Virus record (IMG/VR): IMGVR_UViG_3300020385_000023
Coordinates: 1 to 41,327 of that record
DNA length: 41,327 bases
Strand: one strand, 5' to 3'
Source: a virus
Taxonomy: Duplodnaviria > Caudoviricetes
Shown here: positions 1 to 35,631 of the stretch, piece after piece
Position numbering within the stretch: the stretch's first letter is position 1
How the letters are laid out: each line of letters begins with the position of its first letter
Program-made: the position numbers and the translations under genes
The notes under the pieces: generated by a model
Seen by the model: only the letters and a program-made list of their open reading frames with translations
The model's database searches: none
Told to the model about the DNA's origin: nothing

Positions 1-77
1 AAAAGTTTAAAATCGATACGCCCGCCATCTTGATTGAAATGGTCGAGGCTAAGCCAGGGGATGCGATCACCGGAGGG
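1..77. repeat. 77-bp terminal direct repeat (copy 1); circular assembly overlap
   Basis: Identical to 41251-41327. A reading frame runs uninterrupted across the junction. Confidence 0.95.
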
Positions 78-500
78 CGCCAGGCGTTCGATTGTGCGTT
101 TCAGTTCTATTGCATCTTGTCGAAGAAAACGCCCCAACTGCCGTTAGCAGTGCGCAATTTAGCCGCTGCCGTTTCGCAAGTGGTGGGGTTCGGTGAACCA
201 ACCGAGAAAGAAATCGAACACGATCTTATTCCTAGCCAAAGTTGGGGACTGTCTAAGCGCGGGGTGAAACCCGTGGCTAAGGATTCCGTGGCCATTTATC
301 CAGGCATGTTTAAGCCGGGTAAAGGAGGCAGCGACAAAGCCCTGGGTTATGACTCGATGATCGTGTCATTTGAACAAAGTATTCACCTCGGCGATCTGAT
401 GCTCGACCCGAAAGAGTTCCTACCTGGTGAAATCACCATAGGCGGGGACTTTACCATCACGCCCGACTGGGAGGACCCAACCAATGGCCCGGAGTCTTGA
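1..500 (+). CDS. 3' part of putative tail completion/terminator protein (starts at ATG 41118, 210 aa in total)
   Basis: In frame with ATG 41118 across the circular junction (MNEATSNV...KIDTPAILIEMVEAK). Lies between the gpZ-like and baseplate V genes. Confidence 0.7.
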   Translation, partial: KFKIDTPAILIEMVEAKPGDAITGGRQAFDCAFQFYCILSKKTPQLPLAVRNLAAAVSQVVGFGEPTEKEIEHDLIPSQSWGLSKRGVKPVAKDSVAIYPGMFKPGKGGSDKALGYDSMIVSFEQSIHLGDLMLDPKEFLPGEITIGGDFTITPDWEDPTNGPES

Positions 501-27047: not shown

Positions 27048-27428
27048 ATGAACCGCTGGGACGAGATCTTCGACCAATGGGCGCGCTGGGTTCACAGTGG
27101 CGCCCTCGTACCTGGCGGACAGTCCATATTAGGCAAGCTGATCGAGAGTCATGGGGTGATCACCTACGGCGGGGGCAAAGGACCTGTTTTAGATTGCATC
27201 GAGGCCGATGTTGAGGCGGCGGTGTTACGTTTGGCGGCACAGGATCAGGTCGCGGCGGATGTCTTTCGTGTCGAATATGGCGCGCTTGGCCATCCGGCGG
27301 ATATGACCCAGTTGAAACGTGCTCACCGATTGCAGATCAGCTTGCCAACCTATAAACGCCGCTTGAAGTCGGCGCGTGAATTTATCGTTAACCAAGTCAG
27401 AGCTAAGAGGGGAATGGGCCATGTATAA
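27048..27428 (+). CDS. Q-like late antiterminator
   Basis: WARW...VEAAVL.L...EY...A.RL.IS..TYKRRL..A pattern; located in the early right operon. Confidence 0.7.
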   Translation: MNRWDEIFDQWARWVHSGALVPGGQSILGKLIESHGVITYGGGKGPVLDCIEADVEAAVLRLAAQDQVAADVFRVEYGALGHPADMTQLKRAHRLQISLPTYKRRLKSAREFIVNQVRAKRGMGHV

Positions 27429-27753: not shown

Positions 27754-27836
27754 ATGAAAGAGCTGTTATTATTGGGCGTCAGTCTTCCCGCCGCGTATGC
27801 GTTGTTCGGTTGGCTGGCACCCTAAGCGGGGCCAGA

Positions 27837-29078
27837 ATGAAAACCAACGTCATCACCTTTTCAGAGCGAAACCTTAAAGCCGAGCAAGCCAAAGACGCGC
27901 GAACCTTGCGTGAATCGGGCTTGCCGCTGCGCTTTCGCTTCCATCAAAACCGCCAGTCGGGATCGTGGTACGTGGTACGCCGGGATAAATGGCATCTGCT
28001 CGGTTACTGGCCCGTGCTGACCGTCTCGGCCGTGAAAAAAGTCTTACCCGAAAAACTCGCCCTGTTGGCGGTCAATGGTCAATCGAACCTCTTACACACC
28101 GAGTTTGAAACCGTGGGCGATGTGCTGACCTGGTATCAAGGCCGCATCGAGAAAGACGCGCACCGCTCCAAAGAACGCAAAGCCACGATCCGCAGTGCGA
28201 TTAAATGCCATCTGCAGCCGCATTTAGGCGAGTTGGCCATCGAAGCGTTAAACCGTCAAACCTTAGACGATGCGCTGATCTGGCCGCTGCAGGAAAACCA
28301 CTCCCTGGCGAGCGTGAAATCGGTGCTATCGGTCCTTAAGCAAGCCTTTAAACAAGCGGAAAAGCTCGAACGCATAGACCATAACCCATTGGCGGGCGTG
28401 GTGTTCTCTGATTTCATCACGACTCAAATCCAGCCCAAAGACGGCCGTTTGTTTGCCAATCACATCGAACCTTTGTTCCAAGCCTTATCAGGGCGTGACC
28501 GCGTCACTCAGTGTTTGGTGGTGATGCTGCTCGCCTTTGGCACTCGGATAGGGGAAACCTTGGCCGCTAAGTGGCGCGACATCGACATGAACAATCGTCA
28601 ATGGCGCTTACCCATGACCGACACCAAAACCGGCGACTGGCACGTTCTGCCGATCACCGACCTGTTGGCCGACTGGTTAGCGCATTATCGAGCTTGGCAA
28701 CTTGAACAGGGCTATCGCGGGGTGTTTCTGTTCCCAGGTCATGCACACGCTAAGCCACTCAGTTACACCACCTCAAGAAAACACATTCAGCAAGTGAGTG
28801 AGGGACAGTGGAGCGCCCACGATTGCCGAAAAGCCTTAAAGACCATTTGCACCGACTTAGGCATTGATCATTCCGTCAGTGAACGACTGTTAAACCACGC
28901 CCAAAGCAAGATGGACAAAGCCTATAACCAATCGCTGTTCATGGGCCCAATGCGTGACGCCTTAGCGCAATATCACGCCTGGTTAGACGCACGAGGATTC
29001 AACGCCTTACGCGCCGAGACAGAGACGAGATCGACAAGATCATTCAACACCGCCGAGTTCAGAGAGTGCGCGGCGTGA
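27837..29078 (+). CDS. Tyrosine recombinase / integrase
   Basis: Catalytic R (GTRIGE), K (TKT), HxxR (HDCR), H (LNH) and Y (AYN) all present. Confidence 0.92.
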   Translation: MKTNVITFSERNLKAEQAKDARTLRESGLPLRFRFHQNRQSGSWYVVRRDKWHLLGYWPVLTVSAVKKVLPEKLALLAVNGQSNLLHTEFETVGDVLTWYQGRIEKDAHRSKERKATIRSAIKCHLQPHLGELAIEALNRQTLDDALIWPLQENHSLASVKSVLSVLKQAFKQAEKLERIDHNPLAGVVFSDFITTQIQPKDGRLFANHIEPLFQALSGRDRVTQCLVVMLLAFGTRIGETLAAKWRDIDMNNRQWRLPMTDTKTGDWHVLPITDLLADWLAHYRAWQLEQGYRGVFLFPGHAHAKPLSYTTSRKHIQQVSEGQWSAHDCRKALKTICTDLGIDHSVSERLLNHAQSKMDKAYNQSLFMGPMRDALAQYHAWLDARGFNALRAETETRSTRSFNTAEFRECAA

Positions 29079-29117
29079 GCCAGTAACGCGACCATCTATC
29101 ACAGAGGAATAAACAAC

Positions 29118-29330
29118 ATGGAAAAAATCATTCTCAAGAAGCGCCTGACCCGAGTCATTGAAGTGGCTATTCACCAACAAAGACTATGGGCGTGCGGTGC
29201 TGATAACCCACTGATTGATAAGGAGTTGAGGCGCCATGATAGCCACCCCGTAGCCCTCCGTCTTCGTCAAGAACCAGGGGACCCTGGGCGAAATATTAGT
29301 AACCACGGGTGGGAGGCCCGCGGTATTTGA
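29118..29330 (+). CDS. Hypothetical protein
   Basis: Good GAGGA Shine-Dalgarno; the 3' part overlaps a possible packaging signal. Confidence 0.5.
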   Translation: MEKIILKKRLTRVIEVAIHQQRLWACGADNPLIDKELRRHDSHPVALRLRQEPGDPGRNISNHGWEARGI

Positions 29331-29440
29331 GAAATTTTCGGATCGCCTATGCGCCGTCAGCACTCTCGCCAGATCCCTGACGAAACCCAGACGCCGCAAG
29401 GCTTCACCGCTGCCGAAATGATCCTTTGTTACTGGAATGA

Positions 29441-29608
29441 ATGTCGATGCGATACATGAACATTACCCAAATAGCCATCACGTTCGACCTAAGTCGCGAC
29501 ACGGTAAGAAAGCGCCTTAGGGCGGCGAACGTCAAAGCGTCGATGAAAGGTCGCAAGCGTGAAGATCTGTATGACATGGCCCAGGTGGGTCCTGCATTAT
29601 TCAATTAG
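29441..29608 (+). CDS. Mini-TerS: 55-aa paralogue of the terminase small subunit DNA-binding domain (not in ORF track)
   Basis: NITQIAITFDLSRDTVRKRLR...DLYDMAQVGPALF; 27/48 identities to the TerS N-terminus by manual alignment. Confidence 0.85.
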   Translation: MSMRYMNITQIAITFDLSRDTVRKRLRAANVKASMKGRKREDLYDMAQVGPALFN

Positions 29609-31294: not shown

Positions 31295-31389
31295 TTTTTA
31301 TAACGTGGTTTTAGTGCGTCCAGAGCGACCCATTAAACCCGCCTAGCCAACTGACGTTGTTAGTGAACCCCAATTTATTCACAGATATA

Positions 31390-31421
31390 AGCCAGCCGTT
31401 CTTTGCGGTTGGCTTTTTTTT
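31390..31421 (+). terminator. tR'-like terminator gating the late operon
   Basis: agccagccg...cggttggct plus a T tract directly before the holin gene. Confidence 0.8.
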
Positions 31422-33077: not shown

Positions 33078-33581
33078 GTGGGAACAGTGAGTTCAATCAA
33101 TGACGCCTATGCCTGGAACATTACCCGAATCGCTGAGGCGTTTGGTCTGCATCGAGACACGATCAGAAAACGCCTTCGCGAAAATCAAGTTAAGCCCATC
33201 GGTAAAAAATCCGGCGTAGACGTTTACGCCCTTGCTGATGTGGGTCCGGCTCTGTTTTCTGCCGAAGCGGGAAACAAAACCGAGGATGATTACAACCCGA
33301 ACAAGATGGCGCCCAAAGACCGGAAAGACTTTTTCCAGTCCGAACGTGAACGCCTCAAGTTTCAAGCCGAGATTGGCGAGTTGATCCCCGAGGGGGATTA
33401 TCGCGACGATTTTTCGGAAGTGATGAAATCGGTGGTCAGTTTCTTTGAGTCTTTACCGGACAATATGGAGCGGACCCGGTTATTCACACCGGACCAACTC
33501 GACCAGCTCGAAAAGCAAAGCGATAGCCTACGGAGTCGTTTGTATCATAAGCTGTTAGAGGTACAGACGGATGCAAGTTAA
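33078..33581 (+). CDS. Terminase small subunit (DUF1441-like)
   Basis: N-terminal HTH plus M.PKDRKD.FQSE.ERLK...G.LIP; precedes TerL. Confidence 0.9.
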   Translation: MGTVSSINDAYAWNITRIAEAFGLHRDTIRKRLRENQVKPIGKKSGVDVYALADVGPALFSAEAGNKTEDDYNPNKMAPKDRKDFFQSERERLKFQAEIGELIPEGDYRDDFSEVMKSVVSFFESLPDNMERTRLFTPDQLDQLEKQSDSLRSRLYHKLLEVQTDAS

Positions 33582-35631
33582 TTACGCAAAGCCTGAACGA
33601 GTTCGCCGCGATGTGGCCAACTTGATCAAGCCGCCTAACCGTGAGCCGGTATCACAAAGCGCCCGCCGTTTATTGCATGTTGAGCAAGGCGGTTCAATGG
33701 TGCCTTGGAATGGCGATCTCGTGCCTTATATCCATGAGCCAATGAATTGCTTAAAGTCGCGCCAATATCGCGCGGTGGTGTTTGTCGGTCCTGCTCGTAC
33801 ATCAAAAACCGTTAGCCTGGTTGATGGTTGGGTGTGTGACACCATTGTGAATAACCCGTCGGATTTTCTGTTAGTCCAAATAACTCAAGAGAAAGCCGCC
33901 GAGTATTCAAAAAAACGCTTGTCGCGTGAGTTTAACGCCAGTCCTGATATTCAAGCGGCGATGTCGCCAAGGGCCCACGATAACAACGTACACGACAAAG
34001 TATTTCGCGCCGGTAACTTTTTAAAGATCGGCTGGCCATCAAAGAACGTGTTCGCCTCGTCGGACTGGAAGTTCGTTGCATTAACCGACTATGACCGAAT
34101 GCCGCTCGATGTTGATGGCGAAGGTTCGGCGTTCTTGTTGGCGTCAAAGCGTAATCAAACATTCATGTCGTCAGGGATGACACTGGCCGAAGGCTCGCCC
34201 GGGTTCCATATTACGGACCCGAATGTTCGTGTCTCATCCCCACATGAAGCGCCGCCCACCAAGGGCATTTTATCGATCTACAACCAAGGCGATCGCCGGT
34301 TGTTTCATTGGCAATGTATCGAGTGTGGCGAATGGTTTGAACCTGATTTTCCATTGTTGCACTGGGACACAAACGAAGTGGACCCAGCCAAAGCAGCAAA
34401 AGAAGTGTATATGTGCTGTCCGCATTGTGGCGGTTTGATGTCAGAGTCAAAACCGCACCAAGGACAGGCGCTTAAATTTGCCTTGAATCATTCCGGGATC
34501 TGGTTGCCCGAAGGCTGCCAGATAGACCAAAACGGTCACGTTACTGGAGAGGCGCGAGAATCCCATATCGCCAGTTTTTGGCAAAAGGGCCCGACCGCCG
34601 CCTTTCAGACCTGGAATGAATTGGTTTACAAGTACCTTGCAGCCTTGGCGCAGTATGAAGCCACGGGCAACTTAGAAGATTTGCAAACCACGGTAAACAC
34701 CGACCAAGGCAAACCGTTTACGCCGCCGCGTAAAGGGGACCGAGGCGCTAACGAACTGATGCAACGCCGCCGCGATCTTGGGGTGCGAGTTGTGCCAGAG
34801 TGGGCGAGGTTCCTTACCGCTGCCGTTGACGTTCAAGCCGGTGCAAAAACCGCCCGATTTGATGTCATGGTGCTGGCCTGGGGTCCAGAACTGGAACACC
34901 AGGTGATTGACCGCTTTAAGATTGAAAGGTCAAAGCGTGTTGATCCGGATAACCCGGATAAGTTTGTCCGGGTGAATCCGGCGGCTTACCTGGAAGATTG
35001 GGATTTACTCATCGACCGGGTGATCAATAAATCGTATGAGCTGGAAAGCGACAGCGGTCGTCGAATGCCTATCCACTTAACCGCGTGTGACTCCGGTGGT
35101 GAAGATGGCGTGACGGATAACGCTTACGAGTTTTATCGCAAGATAAAGCAAGAGGGGTTAGCCCGCCGCTTTATGTTGGTAAAAGGTCAGGGGCGCGGTC
35201 CGGTGATTGTCGAAACTTATCCAGACAACACCAAACGTAAAGACCGAAAAGCCCGCGCTTATGGTGATGTGCCGGTTTACCAGCTCAATCCAGACAGAAT
35301 AAAAGACACGGTTCAATCTGCATTTGACCGCCCTGAACCTGGGCGTCGTTATGTGCATTTGCCGATGTGGTTGCCGGATACCTTCTTCGATGAATTGCTC
35401 GCCGAAGAACGTGGCCATGATGGCAAGTGGAAGAAGATTTCCAAACGAAACGAAACGCTCGATTTATTCGTTTACAACTGGTCATGTATTTACAAACTCA
35501 AGGCGGACCGCATTGACTGGGAGAATCCGCCTTACTTCGCAGTGCCTATCGATGAAAGTACGGCATTAGTTACCCAAGACGGCGAGTCCGTGGCGCTGCC
35601 AAAGCGTCGCCGCCGAGCTTCAAGTTTATGA
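33571..35631 (+). CDS. Terminase large subunit (lambda gpA family)
   Basis: GPARTSKT Walker A, LTDYDR, CxxC...CPHC, AAVDVQ and RNETLDL motifs. Confidence 0.96.
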   Translation: MQVNYAKPERVRRDVANLIKPPNREPVSQSARRLLHVEQGGSMVPWNGDLVPYIHEPMNCLKSRQYRAVVFVGPARTSKTVSLVDGWVCDTIVNNPSDFLLVQITQEKAAEYSKKRLSREFNASPDIQAAMSPRAHDNNVHDKVFRAGNFLKIGWPSKNVFASSDWKFVALTDYDRMPLDVDGEGSAFLLASKRNQTFMSSGMTLAEGSPGFHITDPNVRVSSPHEAPPTKGILSIYNQGDRRLFHWQCIECGEWFEPDFPLLHWDTNEVDPAKAAKEVYMCCPHCGGLMSESKPHQGQALKFALNHSGIWLPEGCQIDQNGHVTGEARESHIASFWQKGPTAAFQTWNELVYKYLAALAQYEATGNLEDLQTTVNTDQGKPFTPPRKGDRGANELMQRRRDLGVRVVPEWARFLTAAVDVQAGAKTARFDVMVLAWGPELEHQVIDRFKIERSKRVDPDNPDKFVRVNPAAYLEDWDLLIDRVINKSYELESDSGRRMPIHLTACDSGGEDGVTDNAYEFYRKIKQEGLARRFMLVKGQGRGPVIVETYPDNTKRKDRKARAYGDVPVYQLNPDRIKDTVQSAFDRPEPGRRYVHLPMWLPDTFFDELLAEERGHDGKWKKISKRNETLDLFVYNWSCIYKLKADRIDWENPPYFAVPIDESTALVTQDGESVALPKRRRRASSL

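Follow-up and report, generated by a model that had tools for sequence, protein, structure and literature searches.

A stand-alone DNA-binding domain of the terminase small subunit is maintained at the predicted cos site of a likely Vibrio-type phage-plasmid and covaries with an adjacent inverted repeat

Introduction

Packaging specificity in cos phages is credited to the terminase small subunit (TerS) together with host IHF. The sole additional specificity factor known is Rpp, a protein of parasites. A complete virus record with terminal repeats (IMGVR_UViG_3300020385_000023, 41,327 bp; the whole stretch was analysed and is called the window below) raises the question why a phage that encodes a full TerS also keeps a second, much shorter gene for the DNA-binding domain of TerS alone. 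An earlier sequence-only reading had described this gene and proposed that it could guard the packaging site against premature cutting, act as a decoy or competitor against satellites or co-infecting phages, or serve as a winged-helix directionality factor for the upstream integrase. Searches of the open-access literature turned up neither an account of a TerS paralogue that consists of this domain only and is encoded by a phage, nor one of the palindrome that accompanies it. Here, we report that this gene, which we term mini-TerS, is a real, old and selected accessory gene of the packaging site, and we weigh how it might act there.

Results

The window encodes a RepA-like protein, ParA, a tyrosine recombinase (27810..29078, plus strand), a lambda-type head (gpA terminase, portal, S49 protease, decoration and capsid proteins) and a contractile tail. 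Because its relatives are circular plasmids from Vibrio, Aeromonas and Edwardsiella together with the Aliivibrio phage H905, the window is likely a Vibrio-type phage-plasmid. Its full terS gene (33078..33581, plus strand; Pfam DUF1441, PHROG 141 terminase small subunit) carries the helix motif H-R-D-T and is the parent of mini-TerS; the lambda gpA-type large subunit gene terL occupies 33571..35631 (plus strand). The recombinase lies upstream of cos as a neighbour outside the mini-TerS module and ends 362-368 bp before mini-TerS, as the earlier figure of ~360 bp had indicated. Two motifs at 29016-29033 and 29097-29108, ~290 and ~210 bp before cos, are kept in close relatives and are candidates for a recombination or other cis site; the first lies inside the 3' end of the recombinase gene and also occurs in a Vibrio plasmid (L218, see below) that is without such a recombinase. 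In phage H905, a ~97-bp tandem duplication, either real or an assembly artefact, is located 3' of the integrase (L016 20240-20430).

The open reading frame at 29441-29608 (plus strand) comprises 55 aa. Its second ATG, at 29447, is the start kept in relatives, and mini-TerS is thus probably a protein of 53 aa (29447-29608; MRYMN...). Pairwise BLASTP aligned its last 50 aa to TerS residues 13-61 with 27/50 identities (E 5e-14); the 27/48 given previously is this alignment without the gap and the last column. The protein ends one residue past the GPALF helix, and therewith at the end of the winged-helix domain; TerS residues 62-167, the C-terminal region for oligomerisation and TerL binding, are missing. 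Over the first 27 codons, the two copies differ by a dS of 1.75 and a dN of 0.33. The ORF, its stop at the domain boundary and the synonymous changes between the copies thus agree with the sequence-only reading.

Profile searches matched mini-TerS to PHROG 141 (E 1.7e-11) and, below the cut-off, to positions 1-46 of Pfam DUF1441. A search of NCBIfam returned no match, a PDB sequence search gave nothing below E 0.04, and Foldseek with the model gave nothing below E 0.001. AF2 modelled mini-TerS as a winged helix of three helices (pLDDT 89.6), whose nearest folds are pSK1 Par, Xis, RppC, RacA and the lambda TerS domain, all with Z < 8. Its recognition helix reads S-R-D-T-V-R-K-R. Residues F13, G48, P49 and F52 are common to mini-TerS and TerS. 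Beyond these, mini-TerS has a signature of its own (R2, YDMA), and its own invariant residues differ from those of TerS.

We further modelled the oligomeric state. The homodimer scored 0.54 against 0.29 for the best control, with a pLDDT of 93 and agreement between runs in 100% of contacts, and thereby passed a mark that 20 of 30 solved dimers clear, against 1 of 23 monomers. The modelled interface joins residues 11-14 with residues 44-52 and matches the lambda TerS dimer patches given in PMC6739421; the score may therefore owe something to resemblance with structures already solved. Mini-TerS is thus predicted to form a homodimer like that of lambda TerS.

About 50 database clusters are related to mini-TerS. 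A profile search gave 86 hits, of which 48 were aligned after near-duplicates, over-long calls, E. coli TerS fragments, satellite types and more divergent domain-only proteins without context (the P0055-P0065 group) had been left out. The aligned proteins are 49-71 aa long, and residue 18, in the recognition helix, is D in 26 rows, P in 12, A in 3, N in 2 and T in 2, with S, V and K in the others. Domain-only TerS-like proteins also exist outside this signature (P0055-P0064, P0066 and L068 5900-6170), among them SVNT-helix forms, one from Shewanella, and one protein encoded in Salinisphaera beside an S49 gene.

A tree built on only 51 columns places 20 of 21 short copies with genomic context in a single clade (support 100/99), with 26 TerS domains outside it. 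The exception, the first short gene of L045, sits on a long branch outside this clade and was excluded from all 20-locus counts. On the TerL tree, a single branch (SH-aLRT 98, quick method) separates all 17 mini-bearing phages (17/17) from nine mini-less ones; the PE002 type is sister to the mini-bearing phages, and every sampled member of their clade carries mini-TerS. The ORF is intact in 20/20 loci. For 11 minis of Vibrionaceae type (40 pairs), dN/dS has a median of 0.11 and a maximum of 0.23, with dS saturated in distant pairs, compared with 0.09 for the TerS domain (12 pairs). Mini-TerS is more conserved than TerS as a whole; relative to the TerS domain, some close relatives show it better conserved, whereas distant relatives show it less so. 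The Aliivibrio fischeri phage H905 (PP986400) carries a copy 94% identical to that of the window, together with the same cos. A related phage appears in two RNA-library runs, sharing sequence up to the mini-TerS stop codon with swapped cargo beyond; the respective contigs (X16-X18) are no evidence of expression, since the rest of the region is covered as well as mini-TerS. Taken together, sequence comparison identifies mini-TerS as a selectively maintained gene of single origin that is derived from terS, and the earlier suggestion of selection holds. In Enterovibrio, the N-terminal stretch of the full TerS resembles mini-TerS (L066 8867-9019; RNISQIAHMF, YAMA), possibly through gene conversion from the mini-TerS of the same phage.

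The stretch at 29275-29375, to which the sequence-only reading had linked mini-TerS, turned out to be a lambda-like cos. The window contains a cosQ, a cosN with flanking dyad, an R3 and an inverted R2 at lambda-like spacing. The cosQ-like element GGGGACCCT (29277..29285, plus strand) has a core that is invariant in 10 aligned loci; for comparison, the cdtI record ends in GGGTCCT...CCACG. The cosN-like site (29303..29323, plus strand) is the sole exact match in the window and reads CCACG, a predicted 11-nt overhang (29308-29318) and CGCGG. We placed it there because the block is homologous and the lambda and cdtI records begin at the base equivalent to 29308. Homology and record starts, rather than virion ends, thus predict a nick after 29307. 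A cohesive end of 11 nt is predicted both for the mini-bearing clade and for the PE002 type as its sister; in lambda, cdtI and a Pseudomonas-like group, it measures 12. The R3-like TerS site CCGTCAG occupies 29354..29360 (cos+47..53, plus strand), and the inverted R2-like site reads TCGGCAG on the minus strand (29410..29416, cos+103..109).

The block from 29277 to 29416 is conserved, and its flanks are not. In L009-L015, the same block stands directly 5' of a full terS, and at 64 distinct control sites a homologous block precedes a full terS. Where mini-TerS is present, it always starts ~140 bp to the right of cos, with the domain beginning at +133 to +147, whereas the distance from mini-TerS to full terS varies from 220 to 5803 bp. 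Three layouts occur: cos-terS-terL; cos-mini-terS-terL, with mini-TerS and terS adjacent after the lysis genes (L029/L213, L043/L214, L062); and cos-mini-cargo-lysis-terS-terL, found in the window and most other loci. Full terS is directly upstream of terL in every locus with terL in view, a position that mini-TerS never takes. A cos scan blind to mini-TerS gave 32 matches, 15 of which lead to a mini of the clade, 1 to a satellite-like element, 7 straight to terminase genes and 9 to neither; a further DNA scan revealed no additional mini-TerS loci. Mini-TerS thus appears to occupy the ancestral terS slot at cos. The tandem layout argues for a duplication at cos and excludes a scar left by lysis gene movement. 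In a plausible history, terS would have been duplicated in tandem at cos, a state still seen in L029/L213 and L043/L214/L062, and the full terS-terL pair would then have moved 2.9-5.8 kb away, behind the lysis genes, while mini-TerS stayed with cos. In a V. campbellii phage-plasmid (L075 8742-10500), the cargo slot between mini-TerS and the lysis genes holds a polymorphic-toxin-domain gene and a GAD-like gene on the opposite strand.

A terminator-like hairpin at 31389-31415 precedes the lysis genes of the window, with mini-TerS upstream and terS downstream of it. The proposed early operon before a late gate is consistent with this hairpin; promoters in the window were found at chance level (4 versus 6.4 expected), and weak matches suggest a Q-like product for 27048-27428.

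Between R3 and R2, at 29366..29383 (cos+59..76), lies an 18-bp inverted repeat of 7-4-7 form, TCGCCAG-ATCC-CTGACGA, that is present once in the genome. Its core, CAS-N4-STG at cos+63, occurs in 19 of 20 mini-bearing loci and, among the matches listed, in 0 of 64 distinct mini-less cos sites and 0 of the 17 mini-less sites whose TerS has the same RDT helix; these controls are mostly enterobacterial and come from the 124 matches listed out of ~870. When a scan was targeted at the core, 23 real cos matches were obtained, and 7 of them, mini-less and enterobacterial, have the bare core at this position; these 7 form one near-identical group without R-like flanks. In the mini-less cos L263, the core is off-register near +56. 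The phasing of R3, repeat and R2 is invariant in mini-bearing cos sites. A generic 8-4-8 symmetry score does not separate the classes (≥6/8 in 14 of 20 mini-bearing versus 17 of 64 mini-less sites listed).

We also scored the sites against an IHF consensus. Matches of ≥8/9 are found in 0 of 20 mini-bearing versus 45 of 64 mini-less sites listed, a difference confounded by base composition, as GC-rich mini-less relatives score 5-7 and the R3-R2 interval of the window 5/9. The palindrome as a replacement of the IHF site is thus not separable from GC content.

In the window, the half-sites of the repeat equal the TerS R motif, so that TerS itself could bind the repeat. The relatives distinguish the two proteins. 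In 12 loci where both mini-TerS and TerS have the RDT helix (TerS out of view in one), G is the third base of all four heptamers. In six loci with a mini-TerS of RPT or RVT type and a TerS of RDT type (TerS seen in five), both arms of the repeat change to TTTCCA[GC] or TGTCCAC, while R3 and R2 stay CGNCA-like. Two loci show the reverse: TerS is RKT, mini-TerS is RDT, R3 and R2 read TCCCC, and the repeat keeps its G. We thus observe a double dissociation, in which the repeat follows the helix residue of mini-TerS and R3/R2 follow that of TerS. Linkage alone does not explain this covariation, because the sites interleave within 65 bp; as all four alternate over this distance, co-inheritance with the nearby mini-TerS does not account for R3/R2 following the distant TerS. 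The independent events are few, with one TerS change and at least two origins of the P/V state on the TerL tree, and the 20 loci are hence not independent. By common helix-base contacts, Asp would favour C, Lys would favour G, and Pro/Val would favour a thymine methyl.

In the mini-less cos sites L077-L200, among the matches listed, the TerS helix residue after Arg likewise appears to track the R motif, which would make such tracking more widespread: Q goes with CATCA in 46/46 and D with CGNCA in 17/17.

Discussion

The sequence-only reading had pointed to the packaging site, and the link to cos bears this out; it missed the mini-specific palindrome and the helix covariation. These two observations make it probable, from comparative sequence data, that mini-TerS binds the palindrome. 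As a predicted dimer, mini-TerS would sit on the inverted repeat that separates the R3-like from the R2-like site. It would act there as an accessory specificity subunit that promotes terminase assembly at cos, helping or bending at the place that IHF takes in lambda. Provided that mini-TerS binds there, we moderately favour such a positive effect, since tandem mini-terS operons leave no timing gap, the phasing is invariant, the sampled TerL clade carries mini-TerS throughout and terminase-less elements keep the repeat. The position of the window's mini-TerS upstream of the hairpin before lysis genes and terS speaks against it and would suit an early blocker. The complete explanation, an accessory specificity subunit at cos, is the best we can offer, and we give it an even chance. 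Lambda-type dimers are modelled as bridging R3 and R2 across an IHF U-turn (PMC4669245, PMC9026076); the half-sites of the palindrome are 11 bp apart, a spacing that may limit their engagement by such a dimer.

Among the alternatives, blocking ranks highest, although we consider it unlikely. Mini-TerS, bound 5 bp from R3, would bar terminase (the phage's own, leaky, or that of a superinfecting relative) from cos and so protect the circular plasmid prophage; competition from late TerS would eventually lift the block. This is the earlier idea of a guard against premature cutting; the covariation fits it as well as it fits a helper, and so do the missing TerL-binding region, the gene order around the hairpin and the circular plasmids among the relatives. 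It is weakened by L029/L213, L043/L214 and L062, in which adjacent mini-TerS and terS after the lysis cassette show no evident timing gap, by satellite-like elements that would need a helper's terminase and yet keep the repeat, and by a phasing stricter than an occluder needs.

It seems improbable that mini-TerS acts mainly by pairing with TerS domains in the manner of Rpp, either as a heterodimeric composite key or as a trans-acting poison of foreign TerS or satellite proteins. RppC pairs with lambda TerS through the same patches that make up the predicted interface (PMC6739421), the four residues common to mini-TerS and TerS would allow for it, the cos-rpp layout of PICIs (PMC9026076) equals that of cos and mini-TerS, and satellite-like elements with the same cos exist. 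However, the repeat forms a complete dyad by itself and follows mini-TerS in both of its arms, which fits two minis better than a mini-TerS heterodimer with TerS, and the Rpp oligomerisation helices are lacking.

We place still less weight on a transcription operator, with mini-TerS as autoregulator or roadblock for the genes after cos: the dyad lies 64-81 bp upstream of the start codon and the fold is MerR-like, but no promoter-like site lies there on the plus strand, the promoter scan was at chance level, and the position is fixed to cosN while the downstream cargo varies freely. A recombination directionality factor for the tyrosine recombinase is highly improbable. Mini-TerS shares its fold with Xis, TorI and RdfS (Z 4.8-6.5) and adjoins the recombinase in most loci; however, it descends from TerS, in L029 it occurs without an integrase in ~5 kb upstream, in L076 and L215 the recombinase occurs without mini-TerS, and the repeat is found in cos only, so that this earlier proposal lacks support. 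Least credible is a rearrangement scar, or a stretch conserved as cis-acting DNA alone, for which the old terS slot and the TerS site within terS of N15 (PMC4669245) could be cited: the dN/dS of 0.11 (dS saturated in distant pairs), the intact ORF in all 20 loci, tandem copies beside full terS where no rearrangement occurred and invariant residues unlike those of TerS largely refute it.

With its fold and position, the PICI protein Rpp (RppA/RppC, PDB 6HN7; PMC6739421, PMC9026076) is the closest known system. Like mini-TerS, it is a TerS-like winged helix (Z 6.1, rmsd 2.2 over 51 residues) that is encoded just after cos, lacks a TerL-binding domain and is linked to its own cosB sequence. Rpp is a satellite-encoded protein of 135-154 aa with an oligomerisation domain that diverts the helper's TerS, whereas mini-TerS is the domain only (49-71 aa), derives from the TerS of the same complete phage and adds a site without replacing R3/R2. 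Unlike an Rpp-encoding satellite, the window encodes TerS, TerL, portal, capsid and tail.

The lambda gpNu1 domain has the same fold (7LXS, Z 5.9; hhalign probability 49%) and the same predicted dimer patches, and lambda cosB (R3-I1-R2-R1) resembles the window's cos in cosQ, cosN, R3 and inverted R2. The isolated lambda domain is a laboratory construct, whereas mini-TerS is a natural domain-only gene. Where lambda has an IHF site between R3 and R2, the window has the extra dyad, and its predicted overhang is 11 bases, not 12. TerS proteins of DUF1441/PHROG 141 (cdtI, Ahp2 and PE002A types) share the R-x-T helix motif and the cos type with mini-TerS, which is 54% identical to its cognate TerS domain; mini-TerS differs from them by the absent residues 62-167, its signature and the variable helix residue 18. 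With the stand-alone MerR-like proteins pSK1 Par, Xis, RacA, BldC and RdfS (best Z 7.8, rmsd 1.4 over 49 residues), mini-TerS has the fold alone in common, at 14-24% identity and Z < 8.

Domain-only genes on elements without a terminase of their own, the setting of Rpp, were found only in a lineage separate from mini-TerS. These satellite-like elements comprise an 11.2-kb V. parahaemolyticus plasmid (L218, NZ_CP083365, whole; roughly one quarter as long as the phage), two more plasmids, one of 17.3 kb from Vibrio and one from V. anguillarum (L219, NZ_CP104556 9887-15520, and L220), and the contigs L217, L444, L445 and L447. All share this cos, and its repeat core is found at +63 or +65 (one arm is degenerate in L445). 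Each has a tape-measure gene next to one or two genes for the domain only, and some also encode capsid, decoration, S49 protease or gpD. TerL, portal and full TerS were not detected in six satellite-like records and L217. Their organisation resembles the PICI cos-rpp layout (PMC9026076), and from sequence they are candidates for a new satellite family in Vibrio. In a chromosomal element (L446, G265:C34:140000-158000), capsid and S49 genes accompany a variant cos, and the one domain-only gene belongs to the satellite lineage.

A bolder version of the accessory-subunit explanation, which we regard as possible rather than probable, is a three-part terminase: mini-TerS would read a private cos palindrome and be required for packaging as a second, retunable lock, and satellite plasmids would have captured the cos palindrome together with domain-only keys of their own. 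If so, the lock could be retuned independently through one helix residue and one or two bases per arm. Binding of TerS to cosB has been hard to show in vitro (PMC6739421, PMC9026076). With a protein of 53 aa, a site of 18 bp and natural matched variants, the helix-base code becomes directly testable, and the host of phage H905, with its 94% identical copy, is non-pathogenic. If true, a domain-only partner that the phage itself encodes, with a site reserved for it, would add a layer to packaging initiation and hint at the origin of Rpp-like pirates.
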